Assembly (NCBI GenBank): GCA_030602785.1
Contig: JAUVZB010000002.1
Coordinates: 47,550-111,549, forward strand
Origin: Dehalococcoidia bacterium
Lineage (GTDB): Bacteria; Chloroflexota; Dehalococcoidia; GIF9; AB-539-J10
Direction of reading: 5' to 3'
Length of the DNA stretch: 64,000 nucleotides
Notes under the pieces: model-generated
Database searches by the model: none
The model's input: the letters and a program-made list of their open reading frames with translations, nothing else
Told to the model about the DNA's origin: nothing
Part shown: one piece after another, positions 19,010 to 35,708 of the stretch
How the letters are laid out: every line of letters begins with the position of its first letter
Position numbering within the stretch: position 1 is the first letter of the stretch
Position numbers and translations under genes: made by a program

Positions 19010-19075
19010 CGGGTCACCGGACGGGTGTAGAGAAACCGGGAAGGTGCCAGGTCTCCACGTTGGCGTCACGTTCGG

Positions 19076-19158
19076 TGCCGAGGGAGGGACTCGAACCCAC
19101 ACTCCCTTGCGGGAAGCGGATTTTAAGTCCGCCGCGTCTACCATTCCGCCACCTCGGC
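19076..19158 (-). tRNA. tRNA-Leu (TAA)
   Basis: GCCGAGG acceptor, anticodon arm GCGGA-CTTAAAA-TCCGC, long variable arm, GTTCGAGTC. Confidence 0.96.
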
Positions 19159-19201
19159 GTTGAGGCCCGGTACGCGAGACAGGACGAAGGAGCAGAAAAC
19201 A

Positions 19202-19274
19202 AGGCGGCGAGCGGATTCGAACCGCTGAATAGGGGTTTTGCAGACCCCCGCCTTAACCTCTTGGCTACACCGCC
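19202..19274 (-). tRNA. tRNA-Cys (GCA)
   Basis: GGCGGTG..GGGGT-CTGCAAA-ACCCC..GTTCGAATC, U discriminator. Confidence 0.95.
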
Positions 19275-19295
19275 ACGAAGGCAAGTCAAACAGAA

Positions 19296-19370
19296 TGGAG
19301 CGGAAGACGAGATTCGAACTCGCGACCTCCTCCTTGGCAAGGAGGCGTTCTACCACTGAACTACTTCCGC
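19296..19370 (-). tRNA. tRNA-Gly (GCC)
   Basis: GCGGAAG..CCTCC-TTGCCAA-GGAGG..TCCA end. Confidence 0.96.
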
Positions 19371-19420
19371 CCGCTCGCTATTGTACTGTCTCCTTCTCAC
19401 CTCGTTCAAGGAAGAAAGAG

Positions 19421-19504
19421 TGCCGAGGGGGAGACTTGAACTCCCACGCGCTTGCGCGCACCACCCCCTCAAGATGGCGTGTCTACCTATTCCACCACCT
19501 CGGC
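19421..19504 (-). tRNA. tRNA-Leu (GAG)
   Basis: CCATC-TTGAGGG-GGTGG anticodon arm, long variable arm. Confidence 0.95.
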
Positions 19505-19505
19505 A

Positions 19506-19582
19506 TGGCAGGGGCGGCAGGACTCGAACCCACGACCGGCGGTTTTGGAGACCGCTGCTCTACCAAACTGAGCTACGCCCCT
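19506..19582 (-). tRNA. tRNA-Trp (CCA)
   Basis: AGGGGCG..GCGGT-CTCCAAA-ACCGC..GCCA end. Confidence 0.96.
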
Positions 19583-19603
19583 AGATACCAAAGATATTCC
19601 TCA

Positions 19604-19677
19604 TACCCCTGGGGCGACTCGAACGCCCGACACGCGGTTTAGGAAACCGCTGCTCTTTCCTACTGAGCTACAGGGGC
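19604..19677 (-). tRNA. tRNA-Arg (CCT)
   Basis: GCCCCTG..GCGGT-TTCCTAA-ACCGC..GTTCGAGTC. Confidence 0.95.
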
Positions 19678-19680
19678 AAG

Positions 19681-19753
19681 TGGAGATAGGGGGACTCGAA
19701 CCCCCAACCTCCGCGATGCGAACGCGGCGCTCTCCCAGCTGAGCTATATCCCC
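19681..19753 (-). tRNA. tRNA-Ala (CGC)
   Basis: G3:U70 acceptor pair, CCGCG-TTCGCAT-CGCGG. Confidence 0.95.
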
Positions 19754-19865: not shown

Positions 19866-20480
19866 CTACGGTCCCCACTGTTCGTAGAGGATAACCTCGC
19901 GCCTGCACCGGGGGCAGAGGAAACTCACATTGTCCCCACGCTCAAGAGCCCTGGCCGGATCGCGCATGCTCTCAGCGACCAGGCCAAGATCCTGGCTCAG
20001 CATGAGGGCAAGACCCATGTTGCCGAACGCCTTGGGCCCCAGTCTCTGCGCCACCCAGCGGATCTGGTCCACAGTGGCTATGACCTCGCCGCACTCCTGG
20101 CAAATGACCAATTCCTTCTCAACAGTCGACACCGCGAGCGTCCGGTCATAGGTGCCAGTGTCAAACTCGTTCGTCAGCACAACACCTTCCAACGTCGTGC
20201 AGTAGCGATGACACTGGCCACAGAAGATGCAGTGGTCGTGGTGAATGGTCAGCACGCGACGTCCCTTGCCATCCTCCACATGGTCCACAACTTCGATTGC
20301 GTTCGCAGGACACACCTGGGCGCACGCTCCACAGCCAATGCAGTCCGCCTCAACGAACTTCGGCTTGCCACGGAAGGCCTCCGGCGGCACGGACGGCTCG
20401 TAGGGAAAGCGTATTGTGTAGGGCCGGCTGAAGAGAGACCGTAGCGCCTCTCCAAGCTCCCTGACTTTGGGTGTCCTCAT
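19866..20480 (-). CDS. NuoI/HycF-like 2x[4Fe-4S] hydrogenase subunit with C-terminal extra Cys pairs
   Basis: PYTIRFP, CIGCGACAQVCP, CIFCGQCHRYC, plus CQEC and CPRC. Confidence 0.88.
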   Translation of the reverse strand: MRTPKVRELGEALRSLFSRPYTIRFPYEPSVPPEAFRGKPKFVEADCIGCGACAQVCPANAIEVVDHVEDGKGRRVLTIHHDHCIFCGQCHRYCTTLEGVVLTNEFDTGTYDRTLAVSTVEKELVICQECGEVIATVDQIRWVAQRLGPKAFGNMGLALMLSQDLGLVAESMRDPARALERGDNVSFLCPRCRREVILYEQWGP

Positions 20481-20483
20481 AGT

Positions 20484-21935
20484 CTAAGCTCCAAGCATGA
20501 TTGCGCGGACAGCGGGTTGGAGTACGTGCTCAATGAACCACGGGAACGTAAAGCCGAGCGCTATACACGCGGCAGCCAGAACAACCGCCGGCGCATACAT
20601 GCTGACGGGGCTCTCCTTGACGCCACGCAGAGCCTGCGGCAGCGCTCCGAAAAACACGCCGCGCTCGTACCTCAGGAAGTACCCGATTGTGATCACGGCT
20701 CCGACCGCTGCCACAACCGCAAACCCTGTCTGGCCGGCCTGGACCGCAGCTACGATTATCAGGAGCTTGCTCCAGAAGCCGTTGAAGGGCGGGCACCCGC
20801 TGATCGAGAAGAAGCCGATGGCCGACGTCACGCCTGTCACAGGCATCCTGCTGTTCAAGCCGCCCAGCTTGCAGATATCACGAGTTCCTGTCTGGCGTTC
20901 AACCGAGCCGGCCCCGAAGAAGAACAGCTCTTTGAAAAGAGCGTGGTTCACAAGATGAAACAGCGCACCAATGAGCGCCAGCGGCGTACCGAGGCCCAGG
21001 CCCAGCAACACGTATCCCATCTGGCTGATAGTGCAATAGGCAAGAAGACGCTTCATGTCGCTCTGGACCAGGGCAAGCAGCGCGCCCGCAAGTATCGACA
21101 AGGACGCCAGAACGAGCAGCACAGTCGAGAACACGCCCCCCGGTACAAACACGAGGAAAAGCAGCCGCATGAGTCCGTAGAGCCCGACGACTTTGATGAA
21201 GACGCCGGACAGAACGGCAGATACCGGAGCCGGCGCCGTTGAGTGCGCGTCCGGAAGCCACGCATGATAGGGCACAAACGCCGCCTTCAAGGCAAGGCCG
21301 GAGAGGAGAAGCACGGCCGGCAGCCCAACGCCCGCAGCGGTGGCGGAACCCATCGCTGCCATCTCGCGGAACGACACCGTGCCCAGGCAGTTGTACGTCA
21401 GTCCGATGCCCGCAATCAGGCAGAGCGTCCCGACGGTGCCGAGCACCTGGTACTTGAACGACGCCTCGAGGTATTCCTTGCCCAACCCGTATGCCACCAG
21501 GGCATAGCACGCAAGTGCGGCCACCTCAATTCCGACGTAGAGATTGACGAGGTCGGCACCGAGAACAACCATGTTCATACCGGCCAGCATCAACAAAAAC
21601 AACACGTAGTACTTCGCCTTCGACGTGTACGACTCCATGTAGGAGACGGAGTAGACCGATGCGGCAAGACAACCCACCGCGCTGACAAGCAGCATCAGGA
21701 GGCTCAGCCCATCCGCACTGAGGCTTATCCCCAGGGGGGACGCGCCACCCATGGACCAGGTCAACGTTGTCCCACCCAGAACCGGACCCGCGACGGCGAG
21801 CGCGAGGCCCAACACGACTACCGTTCCAACATTGCACAGGACGTCGGCAACTCGCTCAGCGCCTCTGGAAAACAACGCTATGGCAAGTGCTGCCGCGAGA
21901 GGCACAGCTATCAGCGCAGGAAGAACAGCACTCAT
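20484..21935 (-). CDS. MrpD/NuoN-like antiporter subunit
   Basis: Polytopic, with YVGIEV, LKAAFVPYHAWLPDAH, KRLLAYCTISQMGY, PPFNGFWSK. Confidence 0.9.
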   Translation of the reverse strand: MSAVLPALIAVPLAAALAIALFSRGAERVADVLCNVGTVVVLGLALAVAGPVLGGTTLTWSMGGASPLGISLSADGLSLLMLLVSAVGCLAASVYSVSYMESYTSKAKYYVLFLLMLAGMNMVVLGADLVNLYVGIEVAALACYALVAYGLGKEYLEASFKYQVLGTVGTLCLIAGIGLTYNCLGTVSFREMAAMGSATAAGVGLPAVLLLSGLALKAAFVPYHAWLPDAHSTAPAPVSAVLSGVFIKVVGLYGLMRLLFLVFVPGGVFSTVLLVLASLSILAGALLALVQSDMKRLLAYCTISQMGYVLLGLGLGTPLALIGALFHLVNHALFKELFFFGAGSVERQTGTRDICKLGGLNSRMPVTGVTSAIGFFSISGCPPFNGFWSKLLIIVAAVQAGQTGFAVVAAVGAVITIGYFLRYERGVFFGALPQALRGVKESPVSMYAPAVVLAAACIALGFTFPWFIEHVLQPAVRAIMLGA

Positions 21936-22231
21936 CCCTTGAGTCTCCTCATCTCACGGATATCCAGCGTCCCGTATTTCTCATACAGGCGCACCGCTGT
22001 GACAGTCATCAGGGAGACAACCGACGCCCCACCGATGACAGCCATAAGACCCACCGTCTGCGAGACCTCAGCAACCGATGAGCCTTCCATCCCGACCACC
22101 ACTACGAGTGCCGCGACTCCCAGCACCATCATCTCAATGCCGAGGACGACCTTCAGGAGGTTCCGCTTGAGCAGAACGCCGTAGAGGCCAACTGCGACAA
22201 GCAGTACTGAGAAGAGACACAGCTGGCTCAT
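21932..22231 (-). CDS. MrpC/NuoK-like small membrane subunit
   Basis: GLYGVLLKRNLLKVVLGIE...YGTLDIREMRRLKG, start overlaps the upstream stop. Confidence 0.85.
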   Translation of the reverse strand: MSQLCLFSVLLVAVGLYGVLLKRNLLKVVLGIEMMVLGVAALVVVVGMEGSSVAEVSQTVGLMAVIGGASVVSLMTVTAVRLYEKYGTLDIREMRRLKG

Positions 22232-22692
22232 TCGTCCCTCCTTCCTGTCTTGCGAAGCATCGCCCACACAGCCGCCAGCGCTGAAATGACCACGATGACT
22301 TCACGCAGGAGCCCCACGTGACTGCCGGCCTCACCATCTGTCCGCGCAATCGTCTCAACCGGGCAATATCCTCTCAGCACCAGGAGGGCAACAATCACGA
22401 ACGCAACGACAGTCACGATTGCCAGAACGCTGCCCGCTCCTTCGCCGAGCGCAGGCACGGTGTCCTCAGCCCCGGTGCGGCCAATGGCCCATTTCATCAC
22501 GCCCAACACCACAACCACCGCCACGACAGCGCCCACTCCCACCTCAACGGCCCCCGCGACAAACATGGCCACGGCGAACAGGACGAGCGCCACTCCTGTC
22601 GCCACGAGCGACTTCTTCAACTGCCGTAGCTCGAGTGCCGCAACGCCGGCAATCGCACTCAACACAAGCAACACAGACACCGGACTCACCAT
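22228..22692 (-). CDS. Membrane subunit (MrpA C-terminus/MrpB/NuoJ-like, divergent)
   Basis: About 5 hydrophobic helices, sits between the MrpA-like and MrpC-like genes. Confidence 0.6.
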   Translation of the reverse strand: MVSPVSVLLVLSAIAGVAALELRQLKKSLVATGVALVLFAVAMFVAGAVEVGVGAVVAVVVVLGVMKWAIGRTGAEDTVPALGEGAGSVLAIVTVVAFVIVALLVLRGYCPVETIARTDGEAGSHVGLLREVIVVISALAAVWAMLRKTGRRDE

Positions 22693-22702
22693 AATCTATG
22701 TC

Positions 22703-24607
22703 CTAGCCAACAACCGATAACACAACAAACAACACCAGAACACCCCACAACATCCAGGAGACGTAGGTAGACAGTCTGCCGCCGTGCAAGGCGCTCAGAG
22801 CCCAACCAAGCGGAGCTGCAAGCTTGCTCAATCGCTGTATGTCGAAGGCGCCACTCTCACCCTTGTCATAGAGCCGGCTCAAACCAGGCAGCCTTCGTAT
22901 GCTGTCATAGAACTCGGTCCCGAGCACGCGGGTATCAGACATTTCCCTGTTCCGCCCATACTTCGTGTTCAGAGAGTCGCTCGTTCCTTCTCCGGCAGTC
23001 TCCCCTCCGATGTAGACTGGCGCAATCCGAACCGAACGGGTCCGCGACGCGAGGTAGATGAAATACCCGATGAGCAGCGCCAGGAGCAACAGCGCCGTGG
23101 CGACTGTCGGACTCCAGATACCACCAATTGATATGGCTTCAGGGAATGCGGGGAACTGCATGCCAACAGCCGGGCCGATGAAGTGCTGCAGCGGCACCTG
23201 GGCAGCGACTCCAAAGATGACGCACAGCGTGGCGAGAACAGCCGGGGCAAAGCGCATTGATGGCCCCACCTCAACAACACCTGACAAGCCCCTGGGACTA
23301 TCCCCAAGGAAGACGCCATGCGCCACCTTCACGAAAGACGCGAGCGTCAGGGCGCTACCGAACATGGCGGCAACCAGGAATATCCAGTACCTGTCAACGC
23401 CGGCCTCAACAATGCCCTGGTAGACCATCCACTTCGAGACGAACCCGTTCAAGGGCGGAATGCCTGATATGGCCAGCGCAGCTATGCCGAATGCAACAAA
23501 TGTGAATGGCATCACGCGAGCCAGGCCTCCCAGCTTCGCAATATCCATGGTGCCTGTTCGCTTCTCCACCGCCCCTGCTGTCAGGAAAAGGCAGCTCTTG
23601 TAGATGGCGTGGTTCAGCATGTGGAACAGCCCGCCGGCAATGCCTATCGCGGTCCCGGTTCCGATGCCAAGCACCATGTAGCCGACCTGTGACACCGCGT
23701 GGAATGACAACAGCTTCCGCAGGTCATGCTGCACCATCGCCATCACCACAGCAGCCACTATCGTCACAGCCCCTATGACCATCAGGAGCAGATTGAGGGC
23801 AAGGTTGACCTGGAATATGTCAAGGACGAGCCTTGCAAGCAAATATATTCCCAGCAGCTTGTCGAGGGATGCAGGTAGAAGCGCCATGACCGATGTGGGA
23901 GCCGCCTCCGCCATGTCAGGAATCCAGCTGTGCATCGGCATTGCGCCGGCCTTCGACAGGGCGCCCAGCATGATGAGGACAAACGCTGCCGCCGACATGG
24001 AACCCGTGACGGGCAAAGACGTCTCACTGAGTACGAGCGTGCCTGACTGCGCGAACACCAGGCCGACACCCAGTATGAGAGCCAGATCTGCAGCTCCAAG
24101 GATTATCATGCTCTTGCCGGCCGCACGCATCACCTTGTTCGCATCCGCGTCCGCCGCGCCGATTGTGGTGAGAAGGAAGAGGGTCACGAGTATAAGACCC
24201 CAGAACCCCACAAACGCCAGCCAGTTGTTGGCAAGAAGCGCGCCGTTCGCGGCGCCGATGCTTATCAGCACGTAGGGGTAGTATTCCCGCAACCTCGACC
24301 TACCCCGCATGTAGCCAAGTGAGAACACGGTCACGAGAAGTCCGAACAGGGTGGCGAACATGACCATGAACCTGTTCAGCTCGTCAATGCGCAGGTCGAC
24401 AAGATAGCCCTGCACGAAACCGAGTGAAATCGCACGATACGATGCCTCCGGCCCCACGAGCACAACCATGCCCAGCAGGAACACAGCGCCACTCACAACC
24501 GTGCTGAACACTTCGCGGAACTTCTCCGCCCTGACGGGGATGGCAAACGCAACCGCCCCCGCAATCAAGGGCAGGAAGACAACCCACGGCAACACGGGAG
24601 AACTCAT
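22703..24607 (-). CDS. MrpA/NuoL/HyfB-like antiporter subunit
   Basis: SKAGAMPMHSWIPD, DKLLGIY, KLLSFHAVSQVGY, HMLNHAIYK, PPLNGFVSKW. ATG 24607 overlaps the large-subunit stop. Confidence 0.9.
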   Translation of the reverse strand: MSSPVLPWVVFLPLIAGAVAFAIPVRAEKFREVFSTVVSGAVFLLGMVVLVGPEASYRAISLGFVQGYLVDLRIDELNRFMVMFATLFGLLVTVFSLGYMRGRSRLREYYPYVLISIGAANGALLANNWLAFVGFWGLILVTLFLLTTIGAADADANKVMRAAGKSMIILGAADLALILGVGLVFAQSGTLVLSETSLPVTGSMSAAAFVLIMLGALSKAGAMPMHSWIPDMAEAAPTSVMALLPASLDKLLGIYLLARLVLDIFQVNLALNLLLMVIGAVTIVAAVVMAMVQHDLRKLLSFHAVSQVGYMVLGIGTGTAIGIAGGLFHMLNHAIYKSCLFLTAGAVEKRTGTMDIAKLGGLARVMPFTFVAFGIAALAISGIPPLNGFVSKWMVYQGIVEAGVDRYWIFLVAAMFGSALTLASFVKVAHGVFLGDSPRGLSGVVEVGPSMRFAPAVLATLCVIFGVAAQVPLQHFIGPAVGMQFPAFPEAISIGGIWSPTVATALLLLALLIGYFIYLASRTRSVRIAPVYIGGETAGEGTSDSLNTKYGRNREMSDTRVLGTEFYDSIRRLPGLSRLYDKGESGAFDIQRLSKLAAPLGWALSALHGGRLSTYVSWMLWGVLVLFVVLSVVG

Positions 24608-25809
24608 ATCTCCAGCCAACTCCTCGAACGCTGTGGGAAACTCCGCTCGAGCTCCTTCGTGCGTTCCCACGAAAGATCGAGGAGGTTCTTCTCATCCAGC
24701 GCTTCCACCGACTTTCCGTCCTCCATGCGGACAGCACGATTCGTACAGCAATAGCACGGGTCGATCGACGCCAGGATAATCATGATATCCGCCACTCTCT
24801 CACCGATGAAGCGAGACCTGAAGGACGGCAGGTTGGAGAACGTAGGCGCACGCACCTTCAGTCTGTAAGGGCAATTCGTGCCGTCGGACCGCACGTAGTG
24901 GAAGCACTCACCCCGTGGCGCCTCCTCGACCCCGATGCCCTCACCCGGAGGAACTTCAGGAATCTCCTCAAGAATCGCCCCCTCAGGAATTCCATCCACG
25001 CACTGGCGGACGATTTTCACGGCTTCAAGAATCTCAAGCAGCCTCACCACAGCCATGGCCAACACATCTCCATCTGTCTGAGTGATGACGTTCCACTCAA
25101 CAGCATCGTAGGCTGCATAGGGGTAGTCTCTGCGGGTGTCGATGTCGACTCCCGCGCTCCTGGCCACAGGCCCCACAGTGCAGCGTTTCACGGCATCCTC
25201 ACGGCTGAGCTTTCCGACGCCTTTCAGTCTCGCGAGCATGACGGGATCATCGAGTATCGCGCCGATGAACATGTTGATCTTCGGCTCAAGCTCATCCATA
25301 GCCTTGACAATGCCGCTGTACTCCGAGGGCTTGATATCCTGTCGCACTCCGCCCGGCTTGATCATCGCGTAGGACTGCCGGTTGCCGGAGATTCTCTCGA
25401 AGAGATCGCAGACTAGCTCGCGATACCGCCACGACCACATCCAGACCGTGTGGTATCCGATGTAGTGGCCGGCCAACCCGAGCCACAGCAGATGGCTATG
25501 CATACGTTCGAGCTCCGCAACGATGGACCGTATGTACCTGGCTCGCTCCGGGATCTCCACACCGACCAGGTCCTCGACCGCCTGGCAGAACGCTATGGGA
25601 TGGGAAGTGGAGCAGATTCCGCAGATTCTCTCCACCAGGAAGACGACCTGGTCATAGGTCTTGCTCTCCGCAATCTTCTCAATGCCACGATGCATGTAGC
25701 TCGTGCGCCAATCGATATCGACAACCCTTTCGCCCTCCACGACAATGCGGAACAGTTCCGGCTCTTCAATCAGAGGGTGATATGGACCAACAGGTATGGT
25801 AGTCCTCAT
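24604..25809 (-). CDS. Group 4 [NiFe]-hydrogenase large subunit
   Basis: GPYHP, HRGIEK, L1 ERICGICSTSH, EAPRGE, RAPT, L2 DPCYCCTNR, plus a C-terminal tail. Confidence 0.93.
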   Translation of the reverse strand: MRTTIPVGPYHPLIEEPELFRIVVEGERVVDIDWRTSYMHRGIEKIAESKTYDQVVFLVERICGICSTSHPIAFCQAVEDLVGVEIPERARYIRSIVAELERMHSHLLWLGLAGHYIGYHTVWMWSWRYRELVCDLFERISGNRQSYAMIKPGGVRQDIKPSEYSGIVKAMDELEPKINMFIGAILDDPVMLARLKGVGKLSREDAVKRCTVGPVARSAGVDIDTRRDYPYAAYDAVEWNVITQTDGDVLAMAVVRLLEILEAVKIVRQCVDGIPEGAILEEIPEVPPGEGIGVEEAPRGECFHYVRSDGTNCPYRLKVRAPTFSNLPSFRSRFIGERVADIMIILASIDPCYCCTNRAVRMEDGKSVEALDEKNLLDLSWERTKELERSFPQRSRSWLEI

Positions 25810-26315
25810 TCTGTCCCCTTGCTCCGAATCCGCTTCCTGACTTCTTCCTGTTCCTCCTCAGTCCGGTAGGGGTACCTCCCCTTGTTTTCCTTCCTGTAGG
25901 GGTACTCGCCTTCAGGCCAATCGTCGGCGAGAATGAATCGAGCGGGATTGGGATGACCGATGAACTCGACGCCGAAGAGATCGGCAATCTCTCTTTCGAT
26001 GTATTCGGCGCCGTCTATGATTGTGGCAATCGAATCGATCCGGGGTTCCGGCATCGGCACAACCGCCCTCAGGGTCAGGATTTTCCCGAGCTGATCGAAC
26101 GAGAAGTGGTACAGAAGCTCCATCCCCGCACGGGTCTCGAGTCCGGTCAGGATAATCAGGCGAGCTCCCATGTCCGTAAACAGAAAACTCGAGATATCCC
26201 TGACCTTGCCCGGCACGATGCTGGCATAGACCCTGGAGTCAGACCGTAGCTCTACATCAGCAACGGCTTCAGGGAAACGCTCTTGAAGGCTCTTGACAGG
26301 ATCCACGTTTCTCAC
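25806..26315 (-). CDS. NuoC/EchD-like subunit
   Basis: LLYHFSFD, IDSIA, EREIADLFGVEFIGHP...DWPEG.YP.RK. Confidence 0.9.
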   Translation of the reverse strand: MRNVDPVKSLQERFPEAVADVELRSDSRVYASIVPGKVRDISSFLFTDMGARLIILTGLETRAGMELLYHFSFDQLGKILTLRAVVPMPEPRIDSIATIIDGAEYIEREIADLFGVEFIGHPNPARFILADDWPEGEYPYRKENKGRYPYRTEEEQEEVRKRIRSKGTE

Positions 26316-26322
26316 CTATCTC

Positions 26323-26760
26323 CTAAAGCTTGGCAAGCCCCTTGACCACCCCGGCGATAATCGCCTCCGGTCGGGGGGGGCAGCCGGGAATGTACACATC
26401 AACCGGAATTATCTTGTCCAGAGGTCCCACCATATGATAGCTGCCATCGAATATGCCTCCGCTGCATGCACAGGCGCCGATTGCGACAACGAGGCATGGC
26501 TTCGCGGTCTGTTCGTACACATGCAGCAACCTCGGAAAAGTCTGCATCGTCACAATCCCAGTAACCAAAAGCACATCCGCATGCCGGGGCGACCCGACGA
26601 GAATAATGCCAAATCGCTCGGCATCGTATTTCGGTGTTAGCACATCGAGAATCTCGATGTCGCAGTTGTTACACGAGCCGGTATTCAGATGGAACGCCCA
26701 GGGTGACTTCTTGAGTCCCCACCGGGATAACTTGCTCAGCTTTCTTTCGCTTTCTTCCAT
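26323..26760 (-). CDS. NuoB/EchC-like hydrogenase small subunit
   Basis: GSCNNCDIE, SPRHAD, GACACSGG, YIPGCPPRP. Confidence 0.94.
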   Translation of the reverse strand: MEESERKLSKLSRWGLKKSPWAFHLNTGSCNNCDIEILDVLTPKYDAERFGIILVGSPRHADVLLVTGIVTMQTFPRLLHVYEQTAKPCLVVAIGACACSGGIFDGSYHMVGPLDKIIPVDVYIPGCPPRPEAIIAGVVKGLAKL

Positions 26761-26764
26761 TTCA

Positions 26765-27697
26765 CTACAAGCCCAGTGAGGCCAGCACTATGCCCACGAT
26801 AGAGAGAACCAGGACCGGCCCCCAGAAGAACCGGAGCGCCTGGTCGATTCGAAGTCGCGGGTTCGTGTTCTTAATCAGGGCCACGAATACCAGGATGAGG
26901 ACGTACCACAGTATGGCCCACGGACTCCACGCTGTCGTGGCGAAAAGGGTAATCAGGAACACGGGCAGCACACACACCAGCATCGCTTTCGTCAGCTTGA
27001 ATGCAGCCAGCGGCACGCCCGAGTATTCGGTGTATGGTCCCGCTATCAACTCGCACTCGGCCTCCGGTATGTCAAACGGTCCCACAGCCAGCTTCGCTGG
27101 CACATATATCAGCGCCACGATGAAAGCAATGATGCACGAGATCCCCTGTGACAGCATCGGCCCGCTGGCCTGCTGGTAGGCGACCATTCCGCCGAGAGAC
27201 ACAATACCGCCGTTCTTCACAACGAGCGTGAAGACCGAGAGGAGGAACCCAACCTCGTAAGCCAGCATCAGCTTCATCTCGCGGCTGGCGCCGAGAGCTG
27301 CAAAAGGATTTCGGGAGGCCGAACCTCCGACTATGAGAGCCAATGATGGCACATACAAAAGATACAGCACTACGATGAGGTCGCCCACAAACCCGCCGTC
27401 AGGTCGGATGCTCGCCATCCAGAGTACCGTGGACACGACCACAACCGCGGCGAACCCCACGAAGGGGGCACCGAGAAAAGTGAGCTTCGCGCTCCCATCG
27501 GCAACGACGGTCTCCTTACCCAGCAGCTTCGCCACGTCGGCAAAGGACTGGTACCAGGGAGGGCCAACGCGCCACTGGAGCCTCGCGCTCAACTTGCGGT
27601 CGAACCACGACGACAGTAGGCCCACAACAGCCGTGAATACGAACCCCGGGAACACGGCCACCAGACCAACGTACGTCAGCAGATTCGTCAGAGACAC
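26765..27697 (-). CDS. NuoH/EchB/HycD-like membrane subunit
   Basis: RKLSARLQWRVGPP, DVAKLLGKE, PFDIPEAECEL..GP.TEYSG, PRLRIDQ. Confidence 0.93.
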   Translation of the reverse strand: MSLTNLLTYVGLVAVFPGFVFTAVVGLLSSWFDRKLSARLQWRVGPPWYQSFADVAKLLGKETVVADGSAKLTFLGAPFVGFAAVVVVSTVLWMASIRPDGGFVGDLIVVLYLLYVPSLALIVGGSASRNPFAALGASREMKLMLAYEVGFLLSVFTLVVKNGGIVSLGGMVAYQQASGPMLSQGISCIIAFIVALIYVPAKLAVGPFDIPEAECELIAGPYTEYSGVPLAAFKLTKAMLVCVLPVFLITLFATTAWSPWAILWYVLILVFVALIKNTNPRLRIDQALRFFWGPVLVLSIVGIVLASLGL

Positions 27698-27699
27698 GC

Positions 27700-28179
27700 C
27701 TATACTCTCCTGAAGAACGGATGACGCCCCTTCATGCTGGAGCCAATCATGACGCTATTCTCAGCGATTTCGTCAGCCTCTTCATACGTGAGGGCGTCTG
27801 CAGGACATGCCATGACACACGCCGGCTCCCTGCCTTCCTCCAACCTCGAGGCGCAGAGGTCGCACTTGGAGATCACGTATGACCGGATCTCCGGCTCAAT
27901 CACACCAAAGGGGCACGCCACCACACACGAGCCACAACCCGTGCACAGCATGTTCATTCTCTTGATTGCCCCACTATCGAGCTTCTTGATAGCGCCCTGG
28001 GGGCAGGCGGCGAGACAGGCAGGCTCCTCGCACTGACGGCAGATGAACGGCAGTCGAACATCTTCCCGCAACTCACCGTACCCTATCGTAGGCCTGTGCT
28101 CATTGTGTGAGTAGTCACACGCCGCCGAGCATGTCCGGCACGCGATGCAACGATCGATATTGACGAAGACTCTCTTCAT
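27700..28179 (-). CDS. HycB/CooF-like 4x[4Fe-4S] ferredoxin subunit
   Basis: CIACRTCSAAC, CRQCEEPACLAACP, CTGCGSCVVACP, KCDLC...PACVMACP. Confidence 0.92.
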   Translation of the reverse strand: MKRVFVNIDRCIACRTCSAACDYSHNEHRPTIGYGELREDVRLPFICRQCEEPACLAACPQGAIKKLDSGAIKRMNMLCTGCGSCVVACPFGVIEPEIRSYVISKCDLCASRLEEGREPACVMACPADALTYEEADEIAENSVMIGSSMKGRHPFFRRV

Positions 28180-29939
28180 GACTTACGTTTCCCGGTCACT
28201 CGCGCAGCCCCGGGGGCCGTGGAGAACCAGCCATCATCTACTGCACGCCATGAGAAAAGGGCTCTCATCTTCACATCATATTCGGGCACTGCGACGACGC
28301 CAGCCTGCAGCCGGTCCGTTATCCTGGCCGTCGCCTCGGCCTCACCAGAGGCCGACGTCAGCACAATGGTGTCTCCATCACATATGCCTTCAGCCGCTGC
28401 GTCCACCTGGCTGAGCTCGACGAAAGCTCCGGGGAAAATCTCCGCAGCCCAGTCCATCCAGCGCGTAACGCTGCCGCAGCCGGAATGGCCGCTCGCAGCC
28501 AGGCTGAAGACCATCTTCTCCTGCGCCGGCGCCGCGACAGCCGCGCTCCTGACAGACTCAAGCCGCTCCGGAAAGTTCGCAGCCGAGAAGACAGCAGCCT
28601 CGCTCGAAGACCCCGGACTCCCCGCTTTCGACGCAGAATCGTCTCCACCATCCAGGGAGCGTTCCAGTAGTGAAATCGCGTCGCCCACCGGGAGCGCACC
28701 CCATGACGGGGGCACGACGGCCTGCCAGTTCTCAACGCTGCCATCAAAGGACGTTGCCGAGCCTGCGGATTCGAGCCACGACGCAGCGGCAAGTACGACG
28801 GATGACATGTGCTCCATCTCTCCAGGGAGCATCGAGCACGTCGCGACCAGTTCAAGTCCACCAAGAGCCTTCTTCAACTCCGACGAAGGGTATGCCGCGC
28901 TGATGTCGGCCCCGAAGCTCAACAATGCCCTGCACTTGCCCGACTCGAGGTCGGCCACAAGTTGGGACACAGGCTTCCAAGACTCTTCAATCGCGACCTC
29001 CAGGGCTCCCCGCGAGTTGCCGGCAGACGGCAACGAAACATACTGCTTGTCAGCACCGGCAATGGACGCCAGAAGACTGGCGAGGCTCGACACAAGGGCG
29101 ACATCGGAGATTCCCCGCACCGGCGGCGCAACAAGCACCGCAGCTTTCTCGGCATCCACGAACGAGCGCGCCATTCGCGCCACCGTCTCTCTGGAAACGC
29201 CGGCTGCGTCCAGAAGCCTCGCGTCATCCACAGTGTCAACCCACCCGGCGGACTCGGAGTCCGCCCTGCCAAGAGCCCTGACTGCCTTCAGCATTGCGGC
29301 AAGGACAAGGGCCTCAGTACCGGGGCGGTTCTGCACGTGCTCGCTCGCGAACCATGCGGTGTTGCTCCTTCGGGGAGCCACAACGAACAGACTGTTGCCA
29401 CGCGCCGCGTACTTGGCATCGATGATTCGCTTCGATAGAACAGGATGTGTCGTGAACACATCTCCAAACACAACGATACAGGCGGCTTCCTCGAGGCAGG
29501 ACGCGTCTGCGCTCCCGCCGGCCGCCATCAGAGGCCAGTCCTGAGGCTCACACACACACGACACGGCGTCCGTGCCGACACTGCGTGCCAGCCGTCCGAC
29601 GGCTCGAAGCTCCTCTGTGCTTCGTGTCGAATCAGTCACTATCGCCACGGATTGCGGGCCGGAGGCGCCGAGAATCACTTTCAGTCGAGAGGCCAACTCC
29701 CCGACGGCAACATCCCACGCAGCCTCCCTGAGCCTCCCCTCCCTTCGAACGAGTGGGGCTGCTATGCGCTGCGGATGGTTCAGCAACTCAGTCGCGTAGA
29801 GCCCGCGAGGGCACACACGGCCATCATTGAGGCCCTGGCCGGGGCAGAATTCCGGACCCACGACTGCCTGGCCTTTCACTCTGAGGCCTATCTTGCAACC
29901 CAGAGGGCACAGAAGACAGAGCGACTCTTTTACATCCAT
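28176..29939 (-). CDS. Molybdopterin-oxidoreductase family (FdhF/NuoG-like) subunit, divergent
   Basis: N-terminal CLLCPLGC...VCPRG, HPQRIAAPLVR, C-terminal DAAAEGICDGD dinucleotide-binding-like domain. Only 587 aa. Confidence 0.8.
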   Translation of the reverse strand: MDVKESLCLLCPLGCKIGLRVKGQAVVGPEFCPGQGLNDGRVCPRGLYATELLNHPQRIAAPLVRREGRLREAAWDVAVGELASRLKVILGASGPQSVAIVTDSTRSTEELRAVGRLARSVGTDAVSCVCEPQDWPLMAAGGSADASCLEEAACIVVFGDVFTTHPVLSKRIIDAKYAARGNSLFVVAPRRSNTAWFASEHVQNRPGTEALVLAAMLKAVRALGRADSESAGWVDTVDDARLLDAAGVSRETVARMARSFVDAEKAAVLVAPPVRGISDVALVSSLASLLASIAGADKQYVSLPSAGNSRGALEVAIEESWKPVSQLVADLESGKCRALLSFGADISAAYPSSELKKALGGLELVATCSMLPGEMEHMSSVVLAAASWLESAGSATSFDGSVENWQAVVPPSWGALPVGDAISLLERSLDGGDDSASKAGSPGSSSEAAVFSAANFPERLESVRSAAVAAPAQEKMVFSLAASGHSGCGSVTRWMDWAAEIFPGAFVELSQVDAAAEGICDGDTIVLTSASGEAEATARITDRLQAGVVAVPEYDVKMRALFSWRAVDDGWFSTAPGAARVTGKRKS

Positions 29940-29945
29940 GTTTCT

Positions 29946-30770
29946 CTACGTCCAGGCATCAGGAAAGTCACATATCTGGTCATACGTGAACACCGGGCCG
30001 TCTTTGCAGACGTAGTAGTTGCCTATCCGGCAGTGTCCGCACAGACCCATACCACAACTCATGTTCTTCTCCATCGAGAAGTACATGTGCTCCGGCTTGA
30101 AGCCCATCTTCAGAAGCAGCGGCGCCATGAACCGCAGCATGATCGGAGGACCGCATCCTACCGCGACCGCGTTCGGGATGTCCTTGATGTCCTCAGGTTT
30201 CATGATTGTCGTGACGACGCCTACGTTGTGCCGCCACGATTCAGCAGCAACGTCAACCGTGTAGACAACATCAATCCTTGGATCGGTCTCCCACGAGAGA
30301 CAGAGCTCCTTGTACATTCTCAATTCCGGGTTGCGTGCACCGTAGCGAAGGACGATGCTCGTGTACTGCTCGGCCTCGTGCAGGAGCGCAAGGAGAACTC
30401 CCCGCATAGGGGCCATTCCCACTCCACCACCCACAACGTAGACCTCTCGCCCCTTGAAGTAGTCCATCGGGTACCCGTTGCCGAACGGGCCTCTCACAAG
30501 AGCTGTCTGGCCGGGTTTCGCATTGTGCAGCGCAGTCGTGTTCTTGCCGTGAGGCTGTATCTGCACGCTCACTTCGAACTTCTCAAGGTCAAAGCTGGAT
30601 GATGACACGCCGAACGGGGACTCTCCGACCCCCGGCATGCCAGCCATAACGAATTGCCCGGGTTTGAAGCAGAGCGGCTCCCTCGGTTTCAGGACGAATG
30701 TCTTGATGGCCGAATTCTCATCGAGAAGGTCCAGTATCTCCGCTTCGACGGGCAAGTAGGGGTTAGTCAC
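29946..30770 (-). CDS. AsrB/sulfhydrogenase gamma-like FAD/NAD(P)-binding [2Fe-2S] subunit
   Basis: PGQF, GESPF, RGPFGNG, GGGVGMAP, CGPPIM, MSCGMGLCGHC..VCKDGPVF. GTG start at 30770. Confidence 0.92.
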   Translation of the reverse strand: MTNPYLPVEAEILDLLDENSAIKTFVLKPREPLCFKPGQFVMAGMPGVGESPFGVSSSSFDLEKFEVSVQIQPHGKNTTALHNAKPGQTALVRGPFGNGYPMDYFKGREVYVVGGGVGMAPMRGVLLALLHEAEQYTSIVLRYGARNPELRMYKELCLSWETDPRIDVVYTVDVAAESWRHNVGVVTTIMKPEDIKDIPNAVAVGCGPPIMLRFMAPLLLKMGFKPEHMYFSMEKNMSCGMGLCGHCRIGNYYVCKDGPVFTYDQICDFPDAWT

Positions 30771-31797
30771 TCTGGCTTTCCTCCAGGTCGTGGAGTACCT
30801 GTCGCATGTCGATCCCGGCGAGGCATGCCTCGATGCAACGACCACAGCCGGTACACGCCATCATGTCGAACTTGGACGGGTAGAACTGGAACTTCTTCAC
30901 GTACTTGTTTTTGAACCTGTCATTACCTGTTGCACGTGCGCTGTGTCCACCGCCGACGCGCGTGTAGCCACGCAGGTAACAGAAGTCCCACACCCTGACA
31001 CGCTCGTTCTGGTCGCCCACTTTCTGATCGTAGAGAACAAAGCAATGGCAGGTCGGGCACACGGCGAGACAGGCGGCGTCCTCCCTGCATCTGCCGACGT
31101 ACTTAGTCCAGGCGGGGGACTCGAAATTCGACTCGACGAGTTCAGTGAAGGAGTGGGTGGTCTCGAACTCGCGATTCTGCTCTTCCACCGTCCTGCGTGT
31201 CTGCTCCCTGTTGCGCTCGCGCTCCGCGAGCTGTTGGTCAGTCGCCTCGCTCAGCTCTACGCCGTCAACATCGAGAAGCCTCGCCCCCTTCTCGGTGCCG
31301 ACCTCCACGACGAGACCGCCGGACACGACAGCCACACTGAGATCGAAACCGCTCTGCGGATAGGGCTTCATGTCCAGGAGTGTGCAGAAGCAGGTCGGAG
31401 CAGGAGCGGAGCAGTCGGCGCCTATCACAAATGCCTTCTCGCGCCTCGAAACCCAGAACGGATCCTGGATATCCCCCATGGCAAACGTCTGGTCAAGGCA
31501 TTCAAGGGAACGCAAATCGCAGTTCTTCGCACCGACAAGCACAAACCCCGGTTCATCATCAAGGGGATCGGGTCCGGAAGGGTACTTTGCGACGGTCTCT
31601 TTGAGGTGGAAATAGAAAGTCTTCAGAGGCTCGACAGCGCGGATTCCGTCCAATTCGGGCTTGGCCCCTGTCTCCGGGGCAAACCGCCACCAGTGGCGGT
31701 GCCCGGCTCTGGAGACCGGCATGTAGACCGGCCTGTCCTGAGCCCAGGAACCCATCAATCGCTCGAATTCAGACGACGTGATGAAGAATGTCGACAT
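30763..31797 (-). CDS. AsrA/sulfhydrogenase beta-like Fe-S subunit
   Basis: PLKTFY, KNCDL, DC...TCFC, CREDAACLAVCPTCHCF, RVWDFC, CTGCGRCIEAC. Confidence 0.9.
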   Translation of the reverse strand: MSTFFITSSEFERLMGSWAQDRPVYMPVSRAGHRHWWRFAPETGAKPELDGIRAVEPLKTFYFHLKETVAKYPSGPDPLDDEPGFVLVGAKNCDLRSLECLDQTFAMGDIQDPFWVSRREKAFVIGADCSAPAPTCFCTLLDMKPYPQSGFDLSVAVVSGGLVVEVGTEKGARLLDVDGVELSEATDQQLAERERNREQTRRTVEEQNREFETTHSFTELVESNFESPAWTKYVGRCREDAACLAVCPTCHCFVLYDQKVGDQNERVRVWDFCYLRGYTRVGGGHSARATGNDRFKNKYVKKFQFYPSKFDMMACTGCGRCIEACLAGIDMRQVLHDLEESQSD

Positions 31798-31915
31798 CTG
31801 ATTCAACCCCGGACGGAAACAGCGGGCGTTTAAGCGAAAAAAGAAAACACTTCAGCCGTTGAGGAGCCAACAGCGCCGGGCTGACCGGCCGAAGGAACAG
31901 TACCATGAGTGCCGC

Positions 31916-31945
31916 ATTATACGAGGCGCGCTGAAACAGTGTCAA
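31916..31945 (-). promoter_or_regulatory. Consensus sigma70 promoter of the hydrogenase operon
   Basis: TTGACA-18 bp-TATAAT. Confidence 0.8.
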
Positions 31946-31971: not shown

Positions 31972-32301
31972 TCATTGTGAGCGGAAACTGACTCGCAACT
32001 CGGAATCTTCCCCCGTGAGGAGATCCTCGATCTCCCGCTGCACGGAGGAGTCGACGACAGGCTCAATAGCAGACACGGGCAATCCGTGCTCGTCCTTCTC
32101 TGACTGCCACTCCTTCACATAGCCCAACACGGTGGCGTAGTGGAAGACCCTGTCGCCACAACACACGGTATCAACCACTGCGTCGGTGAGCAGGTAGAGA
32201 ACATCTCGTCCCCGGTGCACAACCGTGCGTTCCCCCCAGTGAGCCTTCACTCCATACCCGCTGTGGTCGTCTGAACCCTCGGGCAGATGTACGTACCGCA
32301 A
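31972..32301 (-). CDS. Conserved hypothetical protein with DxxCCG motif
   Basis: GRDVLY..VDTVCCG..YATVLGYVKEW...PVSAIEPV. AAGGAG RBS, TTG start. Confidence 0.65.
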   Translation of the reverse strand: MRYVHLPEGSDDHSGYGVKAHWGERTVVHRGRDVLYLLTDAVVDTVCCGDRVFHYATVLGYVKEWQSEKDEHGLPVSAIEPVVDSSVQREIEDLLTGEDSELRVSFRSQ

Positions 32302-32391
32302 GGCCGATGTCTCCTTCCGCGGTTCTCCGCGGCGGTTAACTCACACGAAGGAGCCTCCTCAGCCTCCACGGTGGCGCCCTCCGGCAAACGG

Positions 32392-32850
32392 CTACCTGGT
32401 GTGGTAGAGCATGAACATCTGTTGCCTGGTTGCCGCCAACTGGTCAGCCGCGATTCTGACAACCCGCTCCATCACGCGGGCGCAGATGTCCGGGTACGTC
32501 TCGCACAGCTTCCGCATGCGTGACCCATCCAGGACAACCAGCGCGGAATCAGTCACTGCCTTGGCAGTACTCGTGTACCGATAGGGCGGGACCAGAGCCT
32601 CCCATCCGAATACCTCGTTTCGCTTCAGGGACGCCACCTGAAGGCGCGTGTCCGGAATCGCCTCAATCTCCAGATTCACGCGTCCCGAATCCAGGACATA
32701 CAGCTCGGTGCTCTCTGCGTTCTCTGTGAACACGACTGCGTCTGTAGAGAAATGCTGAACCCGGACGACGCTCAGCCTGACCATGTCGAGTTCTTCGTCA
32801 CTGATACCGTGAAATATTCCAACTTCCTTGAGACGATCTACGCTCACCAT
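32392..32850 (-). CDS. Stand-alone cyclic-nucleotide-binding domain protein
   Basis: IFHGIS.EEL, LYVLDSGRV, EVFGWEAL, YTSTAKA. No HTH. AGGAGGT RBS. Confidence 0.88.
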   Translation of the reverse strand: MVSVDRLKEVGIFHGISDEELDMVRLSVVRVQHFSTDAVVFTENAESTELYVLDSGRVNLEIEAIPDTRLQVASLKRNEVFGWEALVPPYRYTSTAKAVTDSALVVLDGSRMRKLCETYPDICARVMERVVRIAADQLAATRQQMFMLYHTR

Positions 32851-33483: not shown

Positions 33484-33702
33484 GTGCCCACCTATCTAGC
33501 TATAGGCCAAATGCTGGTTGCTGTGGCCCTTATCTCTGTCATCCTTCTGCAAGTGCACGGAGGCGGCCTTGGAGGCATATTCGGGCAGCCCGATTCCGTA
33601 TACCGGACCAGAAGGGGTGTAGAGAAGACGCTCTTCCGCCTGACGATTGCTCTGGCGGTATTCTTTGTCATACTCGCCATGGTGATTGTGTCCGTCTCGT
33701 AG
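33484..33702 (+). CDS. secG: Preprotein translocase subunit SecG
   Basis: VILLQ..GGGLGGIFG...RTRRGVEKTLFRLT. GAGGA RBS, GTG start. Confidence 0.92.
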   Translation: MPTYLAIGQMLVAVALISVILLQVHGGGLGGIFGQPDSVYRTRRGVEKTLFRLTIALAVFFVILAMVIVSVS

Positions 33703-33709
33703 CCAGGTC

Positions 33710-35381: not shown

Positions 35382-35708
35382 GCAGGCCGCCTCCCGGGCA
35401 TTTCGCAACCGAAACGGCGGGAAGATGGGTGCGGGTCGATGCAGTGAACCACGTAGCCACGAGGCGGGGGGCTATCGCAGCATCTCGCTGATATCGAAGC
35501 CAGTCAGCCCGGGGCATGAGTGCCCCCGCAGCCGCTGTCATGTGTCACCTCTGCCCAACTGAGTCGGCTCCAGCGCCGGGCACACACGGTTGCATCGGAA
35601 CAGTATCATCACACTTCTGCTGACCCGCACCCCCGAACACGCTCCAGTGTGGTCAATCATCAGTGTCACAAGAAGGACATGTCCAGGGAACTCCGCATGC
35701 GAACGCCA

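Follow-up and report, generated by a model that had tools for sequence, protein, structure and literature searches.

A reduced Hun-type group 4 [NiFe]-hydrogenase operon from a Dehalococcoidia bacterium, with an AsrAB-like flavoprotein pair and a formate dehydrogenase-like subunit lacking the catalytic residues

Within a 64,000-nucleotide stretch of DNA from a Dehalococcoidia bacterium (GenBank assembly GCA_030602785.1, contig JAUVZB010000002.1, positions 47,550 to 111,549 of the forward strand; hereafter the window, numbered from its first letter), we analyzed an operon of 13 minus-strand genes that joins the genes of a hydrogenase to those of a flavoprotein pair resembling AsrA and AsrB and of a formate dehydrogenase (Fdh)-like subunit. 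The evidence supports that the operon encodes a group 4 [NiFe]-hydrogenase with a complex-I-like membrane arm and that the FNR-type flavoprotein pair is an integral part of this hydrogenase, whereas the Fdh-like subunit is an optional extra outside the core. The enzyme is probably a reversible NAD(P)H:H+ oxidoreductase coupled to ion translocation, in which the Fdh-like subunit would be a dead, most likely molybdopterin-free relic. The operon is a reduced member of a published, biochemically uncharacterized kind, known as Hun or 'Mbh-Mrp-oxidoreductase'. The genome that carries it measures 2.57 Mb in 141 contigs and is 95.4% complete.

The hydrogenase and its flavoprotein pair

Open reading frame (ORF) calls combined with Pfam and NCBIfam searches placed the 13 genes at 19866-31806, all co-oriented and tightly packed. 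They are listed here in the order of transcription, with sizes in amino acids (aa); SHI denotes the soluble hydrogenase I of Pyrococcus furiosus.

30763-31806, minus strand: HunA/HydB (SHI-beta)/AsrA-like polyferredoxin (Pfam Fer4_22)
29946-30770, minus strand: HunB/HydG (SHI-gamma)/AsrB-like flavoprotein for FAD, NAD(P)H and [2Fe-2S], 274 aa (FAD_binding_6, NAD_binding_1 and DHODB_Fe-S_bind)
28176-29939, minus strand: Fdh-like molybdopterin-family subunit, 587 aa, N-terminal [4Fe-4S] Cys motif kept (PF04879, PF00384 and PF01568)
27700-28179, minus strand: HunC/HycB/CooF-like ferredoxin with 16 Cys in four 4-Cys motifs, which are conserved (Pfam Fer4_11)
26765-27697, minus strand: NuoH/HyfC-like membrane subunit (PF00146, E 1.7e-60)
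26323-26760, minus strand: NuoB-type hydrogenase small subunit (PF01058, E 7e-32)
25806-26315, minus strand: NuoC-like subunit (PF00329)
24604-25809, minus strand: [NiFe] large subunit (HunG-type) with CGIC and CYCC motifs and a C-terminal extension (PF00346 and PF00374)
22703-24607, minus strand: NuoL/MrpA-like antiporter subunit with a C-terminal extension (PF00361 and PF00662; the NuoL model matches end to end)
22228-22692, minus strand: hydrophobic protein of 154 aa, of no known family (no Pfam or NCBIfam match)
21932-22231, minus strand: NuoK/MnhC-like subunit (PF00420)
20484-21935, minus strand: MrpD or NuoM/N-like antiporter subunit (PF00361, E 3e-68)
19866-20480, minus strand: NuoI/HycF-like subunit for two [4Fe-4S] clusters, in the position of HunP (Pfam Fer4 families)

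An initial annotation of this DNA had described 13 co-oriented minus-strand genes with overlaps or short gaps; all the ORFs are where it had placed them, and Pfam and NCBIfam agree with the gene order and families that it gave. With corrected starts, all 12 junctions are either an overlap of 4 or 8 nucleotides (nt) or a gap of 2-10 nt, the mrpD-like and nuoI-like genes being spaced by 3 nt, and the genes of the operon are translationally coupled. The start of the asrB-like gene was moved to GTG 30770, with GGAGGA ahead of the start codon; the longer ORF at this place is a non-coding artefact, because the related locus L005 has a stop inside the extra part. The starts of the MrpA-like and NuoK-like genes were moved to ATG 24607 and ATG 22231, each in an ATGA overlap, and that of the asrA-like gene is probably ATG 31797.

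The features of group 4 enzymes are present in the operon, i.e., two CxxC nickel motifs together with subunits of the NuoB, NuoC, NuoI and NuoH types. The large subunit carries RICGICSTSH and DPCYCCTNR, so that all four nickel ligands are present, and its residues C63, C66, C352 and C355 are invariant in 13 sequences. Its PDB matches include the large subunit of the membrane-bound hydrogenase Mbh (6cfw_L, E 4.8e-80) and HycE (7z0s_E, E 4.3e-79), and the best NCBIfam match of the NuoI-like protein is the formate hydrogenlyase iron-sulfur subunit (97.5 bits, under the cut-off). Maturation genes were found elsewhere in the genome, for HypD on contig C56 (the one Hyp gene that was searched for) and for HycI on contig C64. 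The operon shares with complex I and with P. furiosus Mbh (6cfw) a NuoB/C/D/H/I core, antiporter subunits of the NuoL/M/N type and NuoK. Unlike complex I, it keeps the nickel ligands, has no quinone site and has an FNR/PyrK-type input in place of NuoEF; unlike Mbh, it has no MrpE/F/G. Membership in respiratory complex I was rejected, since the nickel ligands are present, Pfam found no NuoE or NuoF family in the operon, and the NuoD equivalog scored 331 bits against a cut-off of 360.

The closest solved relatives of the first two proteins are the beta and gamma subunits of P. furiosus SHI (9nez), with which they have FAD, NAD(P) and Fe-S motifs in common. The sole PDB match of the AsrA-like protein is the sulfhydrogenase 1 beta subunit (9nez_B, E 3.7e-41), and 14 of its Cys are invariant across 26 sequences with identities down to ~29%. 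The AsrB-like protein matched best the gamma subunit of the same enzyme (9nez_C, E 7.2e-48). Across 26 AsrB-like sequences, with identities down to ~41%, G115, G116, G118 and P121 of the NAD(P) loop are invariant and G114 is nearly so, and the FAD motif and the [2Fe-2S] Cys at positions 239, 244, 247 and 255 are likewise invariant. The NCBIfam scores were all below the equivalog cut-offs: ShyB at 165 bits, AsrA at 108 (cut-off 323) and HydB for the AsrA-like protein, and AsrB at 205 bits (cut-off 289) and HydG for the AsrB-like protein. The pair therefore constitutes a subfamily of its own. It differs from its P. furiosus counterpart, relative to whose equivalog cut-offs its scores are far too low, in that the latter serves a soluble group 3b enzyme and the pair in the window a membrane-bound group 4 enzyme.

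Two memberships suggested by this homology were rejected. For the sulfite reductase AsrABC, a Pfam search confined to the operon found no gene for an AsrC-type or siroheme subunit, and the AsrA and AsrB scores are those given above; for the group 3b sulfhydrogenases, the only PF00374 matches in the genome are two large subunits of group 4 type, with HydA and ShyA scoring 25-46 bits. A search for longer AsrA-like proteins found eight AsrA-AsrB fusions of ~677 aa, and a 763-aa protein (P0349) considered as an AsrA-HycB fusion was rejected on inspection.

We examined the conservation of this arrangement by two scans. A genome scan with the molybdopterin-family protein as query and one genome per species yielded 13 loci, all from Dehalococcoidia; every one keeps the gene order of the window as far as its contig reaches, and six of the 13 run from the asrA-like to the nuoI-like gene. 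The named relatives of both the large subunit and the molybdopterin-family protein are metagenome-assembled genomes (MAGs) of Dehalococcoidia or Chloroflexota. A metagenome scan with a large-subunit alignment yielded no fewer than 595 relatives; the 80 best loci, at 51-85% identity, were kept, and their ORFs were scored against the window proteins and a profile of the Fdh-like family. While 31 of these 80 loci end too soon upstream to judge, all 49 with at least 600 nt of sequence ahead of the HycB-like gene show an AsrB-like gene in it, and all 37 with at least 3600 nt show AsrA-like and AsrB-like genes together. Compared to this, the Fdh-like subunit was found in 9 of the 49 informative loci (8 of the 37) and is missing from the other 40. 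Thus the flavoprotein pair is constant in the hydrogenase clade, and the Fdh-like subunit is optional. The initial annotation had proposed a complex-I-like group 4 [NiFe]-hydrogenase with an FNR-type flavoprotein as its input, to be checked by synteny; the nickel motifs, the Nuo families, the invariant FAD, NAD(P) and [2Fe-2S] motifs and the synteny in 13 of 13 genome loci and 49 of 49 metagenome loci support the group 4 and complex-I-like character and the flavoprotein pair as an integral part. Its inclusion of the Fdh/NuoG-like subunit as a core part did not survive, given the absence of this subunit from 40 of 49 related loci and its most likely cofactor-free state in the window.

In the membrane arm, the NuoL/MrpA-like subunit keeps the Lys of transmembrane helix (TM) 7, the Asp-Lys pair of TM8 and the Lys of TM12 in 51 of 51 sequences, and the position of the TM5 Glu of MbhH and MrpA (around residue 158 of the listed ORF) is Gly in 47 of 51, so the charge pair of this first antiporter-like subunit may be rearranged (TM5 Gly, TM8 Asp-Lys). 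In the MrpD-like subunit, compared across 41 sequences, the TM5 Glu and TM7 Lys are kept in 41 and the TM8 Lys and TM12 Lys in 40. The alignments were computed here, and the TM names of these Lys and Glu positions are the customary ones.

Pfam and NCBIfam gave no match to MnhE, MrpF, MnhG, MnhB or MbhD/E in the operon, and the Dehalococcoidia relatives likewise are without them. Because all of these are present in L039, a typical Hun locus of 16 genes, the window holds a reduced Hun variant. The spot of the MbhD/E and MnhB genes of such typical loci is occupied by the 154-aa protein, whose homologues were found by tblastn only in L002, L004 and L010 and by phmmer in L023; a comparison with the HyfE-like fused ORF of L063 gave no similarity. 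In three further loci (L033, L065 and L089) the NuoI-like gene directly follows the first antiporter-like gene, showing that the size of the arm ranges within the family from a single antiporter-like subunit up to the complete Mrp module. As a separate observation, two loci (L033:488-5542 and L087:3756-5372) hold a second, smaller cluster of NuoH, NuoB and large-subunit genes directly upstream of the Hun-type operon.

The formate dehydrogenase-like subunit and its cofactor supply

A profile of 23 members of the Fdh-like family aligned best to formate dehydrogenases, and the AlphaFold 2 model of the subunit (pLDDT 85.9) has the Fdh/Nap fold, with TMq values of 0.82-0.84 that include FdhF in 7z0t at 0.82. 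In the profile alignment with FdhH of Escherichia coli, Sec140 is replaced by an invariant Gln (Q133), His141 by an invariant Asp (D134) and Arg333 by Pro, and the best NCBIfam match, Fdh-alpha, scored 177 bits against a cut-off of 666. On these two grounds membership among formate dehydrogenases or formate hydrogenlyases was rejected. A library-wide profile search returned 314 Fdh-like representatives at E <= 1e-30. Residues were checked in 60 of the 150 best-scoring matches listed, proteins of ~530-640 aa that match most of the profile; the three catalytic residues are replaced in them as well, the ligand position never being Cys, and those with an intact N-terminus all retain the Asp and the four Cys of the FS0 cluster. 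The nine metagenome copies measure 379-611 aa and have lost the same catalytic residues, and three of the nine have lost an FS0 Cys. Across loci L003-L011, the Fdh-like subunit is the least conserved of the well-aligned subunits, with identities of 49-61% versus 64-92% for its neighbors. With the Sec/Cys, His and Arg all replaced in the alignment, the subunit is predicted to be catalytically dead.

The supply of molybdenum cofactor (Moco) was then surveyed through marker families of its biosynthesis. The Fdh-like subunit is the only PF00384 match in the window's genome, which gave no match to MoaC, MoeA_N, MoaA-C or MoaE, each detected in 11 of 14 control genomes; a single PF00994 match was found in a 401-aa ORF, and this family also matches controls without the other markers. 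That these markers are unmatched in a genome that is 95.4% complete speaks against membership among functional Mo/W bis(pyranopterin guanine dinucleotide) enzymes. Among 11 genomes carrying an Fdh-like subunit, MoeA_N was found in one (G259), compared to 235 of 251 Dehalococcoidia in an even sample of the class (234 of 250 when the unpublished genome G244 is left out), and MoaC was found in two (G259 and G253); in eight of the 11 the Fdh-like subunit is the sole PF00384 match. Within the sample of 251, the Fdh-like family (E < 1e-100) was found in two genomes, both among the 16 without MoeA_N. The contrast in MoeA between carriers and class suggests that the Fdh-like subunit has most likely become a relic devoid of cofactor, comparable to the C-terminal part of NuoG, a molybdopterin fold that has no cofactor and serves as a scaffold in complex I. 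A side observation concerns G253, in which the only MoaC match (G253:C3:691360-691747) is split across two overlapping frames, as if a gene of the Moco pathway were decaying while the Fdh-like subunit is retained.

Some of the data weigh against a relic. The FS0 Cys and D134, which lies beside the former ligand position, are conserved across the Fdh-like family; this would agree with a role still being served and perhaps with a ligand site still in place. One carrier genome, G252, has three other PF00384 proteins, yet it gave no MoeA_N or MoaC match. Because of this case, and because completeness is given for 2 of the 11 carriers, the missing Moco matches may partly reflect incomplete bins. 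The 11 carriers are, moreover, relatives and thus not independent samples.

The distribution of the subunit was mapped onto a quick maximum-likelihood tree of 90 large subunits, comprising that of the window, those of 8 of the 13 genome loci and of the 80 metagenome loci, and as outgroup that of a second hydrogenase of the same genome on contig C64; L001, L003, L008 and L012, with no or a partial large subunit, and L006 were left out. Presence of the Fdh-like subunit changes 2 times on this tree, compared to a mean of 15.5 when shuffled, and none of 500 shuffles was as low. The carriers form basal branches and the non-carriers two large derived clades. This fits an Fdh-bearing ancestor followed by loss, on a tree whose root is one long outgroup branch and whose basal forks are unsupported.

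Published relatives, proposed reaction and competing explanations

The initial annotation had ranked the operon as a candidate for an undescribed system, a claim overturned by the literature, as the same gene set appears in bioRxiv 10.1101/536078, PMC6349859, bioRxiv 10.1101/765248 and PMC13582414. Glass et al. (bioRxiv 10.1101/536078) defined a 16-subunit 'Hun' supercomplex (hunA-P), in which HunAB resemble AsrAB, HunC is a polyferredoxin and HunG carries CGIC (L1) and CYCC (L2) and falls into HydDB group 4g, yet distant from other 4g members. In their account a protein with a molybdopterin domain stands between HunB and HunC in some MAGs, and the carriers include Atribacteria, Omnitrophica, Elusimicrobia and Kosmotoga isolates. 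The window shares with this design the HunAB/AsrAB-like pair, the molybdopterin-family protein placed between HunB and HunC, HunC itself, NuoH/B/C, the CGIC/CYCC large subunit, the Mrp-like subunits and the terminal NuoI-like protein. Its HunA/HunB and HunC genes lie directly upstream of the hydrogenase genes, as in 49 of 49 informative relatives, and both come from anaerobes of sediment or the subsurface. The two differ in gene number (13 in the window versus 16), in the lack of MnhE/F/G and in the 154-aa protein that replaces MbhD/E and MnhB.

Hydrogenase and Mrp-like genes are likewise found together with those for an unclassifiable molybdopterin oxidoreductase and cooF-, asrA- and asrB-like genes in the 'enigmatic' group 4 hydrogenase of Saganbacteria RX5A (Matheus Carnevali et al., PMC6349859) and in the 'Mbh-Mrp-oxidoreductase type' of Elusimicrobia (Méheust et al., bioRxiv 10.1101/765248), the function of both being stated there as unknown. 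These belong to phyla other than that of the window, and no residue-level or cofactor-pathway analysis appears in the available portions of the two papers. Two further papers (PMC5165239 and PMC2678158) do not, in their available portions, bear on this architecture. Our literature searches found no biochemical characterization of a Hun-type design, the published accounts so found describing genomes and no assay, and in this the initial annotation, which knew of no characterized example, still holds. What is new here is the separation of core from relic parts, the loss of catalytic residues in the Fdh-like subunit, the census of Moco genes and the window variant without MrpE/F/G.

In the reaction that we propose, NAD(P)H would bind to the AsrB/HydG-like flavoprotein and reduce its FAD, from which electrons would pass over the AsrB-like [2Fe-2S] cluster and the [4Fe-4S] clusters of the AsrA/HydB-like protein to the four clusters of the HycB-like protein, and from there over two clusters of the NuoI/HycF-like and one of the NuoB-like subunit to the [NiFe] site. 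The whole path would hold about ten Fe-S clusters, and electrons could also flow in reverse. Redox turnover at the NuoB/C/D/H interface would drive, or be driven by, ion movement through a membrane arm made of NuoH, the NuoL-like subunit, the 154-aa protein, NuoK and MrpD; the antiporter-like Lys and Glu residues conserved in 40-51 sequences are counted in favor of ion translocation. The Fdh-like subunit, as the relic of a formate-hydrogenlyase ancestor, would carry its [4Fe-4S] cluster only and act as a scaffold or a side branch. The NAD(P)H and H2 couples have midpoint potentials of ~-320 and ~-414 mV, respectively. Oxidation of H2 with NAD(P)+ would thus release ~18 kJ/mol, enough for about one ion per H2; alternatively, the ion gradient could drive the release of H2 from NAD(P)H at low H2, a reaction that would require either the gradient or very low H2.

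Several points count against this proposal. What the analysis establishes is the gene set, its cofactor motifs and synteny, the loss of the catalytic residues in the Fdh-like subunit and the lack of Moco genes, and it is from these that we infer the subunit contacts, the NAD(P)H substrate, the direction of the reaction and the identity of the ion. Binding of NAD(P)H by the AsrB-like protein is predicted from motifs and homology, and the putative Fe-S wire is drawn by analogy with E. coli formate hydrogenlyase and P. furiosus SHI. Making H2 with electrons from NAD(P)H costs energy under standard conditions. Glass et al., finally, assume ferredoxin as the donor and HunAB as the ferredoxin acceptor (bioRxiv 10.1101/536078).

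Following that assumption, the operon would encode an Mbh-like hydrogenase driven by ferredoxin, whose electrons the AsrAB-like and HycB-like proteins collect while H2 is evolved and ions are pumped; we consider this unlikely. Such a donor has been assigned not only to Hun (bioRxiv 10.1101/536078) but also to Mrp-linked enzymes of Omnitrophota, Cloacimonadota and Auribacterota, labeled group 4g and ferredoxin-coupled in the available portions of PMC8542988 and PMC9324843. The many exposed [4Fe-4S] domains could dock ferredoxin, and the transfer from ferredoxin to H2 is downhill and so could drive pumping. However, the AsrB-like protein keeps complete FAD and NAD(P) motifs under strong conservation, and among solved proteins it comes closest to the gamma subunit of SHI, which binds NADPH. 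A group 4 enzyme of the classical Mbh type, equipped with MrpE/F/G/B but with no flavoprotein, is furthermore already encoded in the same genome, so that there is less need for another hydrogenase fed by ferredoxin only. The genes of this Mbh-type enzyme lie on contig C64 (G000:C64:15400-26200; L022:4455-15199) and code for MrpE/F/G, MbhE, MnhB, MrpD, NuoB/C, NuoH and NuoI and for a large subunit whose nickel motifs are intact. Beside them lie genes for HycI, a NifU-like protein and a CoA-disulfide-reductase-like pyridine-nucleotide-disulfide oxidoreductase with a rhodanese domain.

A study of 2026 (PMC13582414) offers a different role for the Fdh-like subunit. According to it, the Cys/Sec ligand is absent from about half of the Fdh subunits that group 4b clusters encode, the clusters with such subunits carry homologues of P. 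furiosus SHI-gamma and SHI-beta, and an AlphaFold 3 model has an Fe-S network that branches to the large subunit, the SHI-gamma homologue and the Fdh-like subunit, from which bifurcation with an unknown substrate was proposed. Compared by gene make-up, the window has the same three-part input on an antiporter-bearing group 4 hydrogenase; one of the modeled 4b examples is from Chloroflexota, and NADP(H) was proposed as a partner. The same make-up is filed as group 4b there and, for HunG, as group 4g in bioRxiv 10.1101/536078. Applied to the window, the enzyme would be a three-way confurcating or bifurcating complex coupling H2/H+ and NADP(H) to an unidentified third substrate on which the Fdh-like subunit is active. 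The branched network of that model, the family-wide conservation of the FS0 Cys and Asp134 and the fully Fdh-like fold speak for it. Against them stand the loss of the Cys/Sec ligand, the catalytic His and the Arg, the shortening of some copies to 379-485 aa and the lack of an FS0 Cys in some. In addition, 40 of 49 related loci do without the subunit and keep the AsrAB-like pair, Moco biosynthesis markers are missing in most carriers, and Pfam found no NfnB/GltD-like or HdrA-like flavoprotein in the operon. The dispensability of the subunit and the shortage of Moco genes thus argue here for a dead relic, where that study places the bifurcation, and we hold its scheme to be quite improbable for the window.

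The homology of the pair to AsrA and AsrB and to the beta and gamma subunits of sulfhydrogenase, together with a gene for a TauE/SafE-family exporter 2.7 kb upstream, could also suggest a sulfur-linked enzyme that reduces sulfite, polysulfide or S0 with electrons from H2. We give this very little weight, as the operon is without an AsrC or siroheme subunit, the AsrA, AsrB, HydB and HydG scores are below cut-off, and the nickel ligands are intact, unlike those of Mbs.

Least probable is a working formate hydrogenlyase (the function of HydDB groups 4a/4b), in which the Fdh-like subunit would oxidize formate and the hydrogenase release H2: Fdh-alpha is the best NCBIfam match, FdhH and other formate dehydrogenases are the best PDB matches, and the order from Fdh-like and HycB-like to HycF-like genes mirrors that of E. 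coli, but the Fdh-alpha score far below its cut-off and the replacement of Sec/Cys140, His141 and Arg333 contradict it, and the Moco genes are missing. Between the window and the E. coli enzyme (FdhF-HycB-HycF-HycG-HycE-HycC-HycD; 7z0s/7z0t) the same chain of subunit types, from Fdh fold to [NiFe] site, is shared; the differences are the Fdh without Sec, His and Arg and the addition, in the window, of the flavoprotein pair, a second antiporter-like subunit and a NuoK-like subunit.

Promoter, genomic surroundings and significance

Ahead of the operon lie the following elements.

31916-31945, minus strand: sigma-70-type promoter, TTGACA-18 nt-TATAAT, matching the consensus at 12 of 12 positions
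31972-32850, minus strand: two conserved genes upstream of, and outside, the promoter
31972-32301, minus strand: first of these, for a 109-aa protein of no Pfam or NCBIfam family and with no usable Atlas match
32392-32850, minus strand: second of these, for a 152-aa protein with a cyclic nucleotide (cNMP)-binding domain only (Pfam cNMP_binding) and no DNA-binding domain

A scan for promoters of this kind found 4 sites compared to 3.2 ± 1.9 in shuffled sequence, a count at chance level. However, all 9 of 9 Dehalococcoidia loci examined preserve both hexamers and the 18-nt spacing of the one before the operon, within an intergenic region that has otherwise diverged (column identity averages 51%), so this promoter, to which the initial annotation had already drawn attention as a consensus match, looks real. 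No match to the Rex operator consensus was found in the window at up to 3 mismatches.

The genes for the 109-aa and cNMP-domain proteins are found upstream in all eight other Dehalococcoidia loci that hold this DNA (L001, L003-L007, L010 and L023) and are possible accessory or regulatory partners; the cNMP-only protein may be a ligand-sensing accessory subunit. Two distant loci of the metagenome set (L060:422-874 and L066:7178-7630) have a cNMP-domain-only gene of ~151 aa as well, there placed within the operon and flanked by the asrB-like and hycB-like genes.

On the other side, directly downstream of the operon, is an array of seven tRNA genes (Leu, Cys, Gly, Leu, Trp, Arg and Ala) at 19074-19753 on the minus strand. 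Contigs of two RNA runs from the same study cover only the tRNA bin 19274-19747 of the stretch; they are 90-95% alike and may come from other organisms. A DNA run that contains the whole stretch is labeled marine sediment metagenome and is probably the source. Among the neighboring genes are those for a PAC2-family protein (13482-14360, minus strand), a SAM hydroxide adenosyltransferase-family protein (33686-34546, plus strand) and the TauE/SafE-family exporter (34557-35408, minus strand), and no link between them and the operon was seen.

We tentatively suggest, as a possibility rather than a probability, that the Hun family, and this Dehalococcoidia branch especially, represents an independent route from formate hydrogenlyase to a complex-I-like NAD(P)H enzyme. 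A formate-hydrogenlyase ancestor would have gained the FNR/PyrK-type pair; its Fdh would have lost catalysis and then its cofactor, stayed on as a NuoG-like scaffold and later been shed in most lineages, and the living enzyme would be either an energy-conserving H2:NAD(P)+ oxidoreductase or a gradient-driven NAD(P)H hydrogenase. To our knowledge, NAD(P)H-linked energy-conserving H2 activity has been demonstrated for no membrane hydrogenase. If NAD(P)H and H2 are indeed linked to an ion gradient here, a membrane hydrogenase would draw directly on the pool of pyridine nucleotides instead of on ferredoxin, formate or CO, which would fill a gap in anaerobic bioenergetics. Because Hun-type enzymes are common in sediment and subsurface bacteria, as seen from the number of relatives in one metagenome scan, models of H2 flux in these habitats depend on the donor of the enzyme, which is currently assigned to ferredoxin by default. 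A dead, probably cofactor-free Fdh would be a living parallel to the NuoG domain and would offer a testable picture of how input arms are swapped in modular respiratory complexes.

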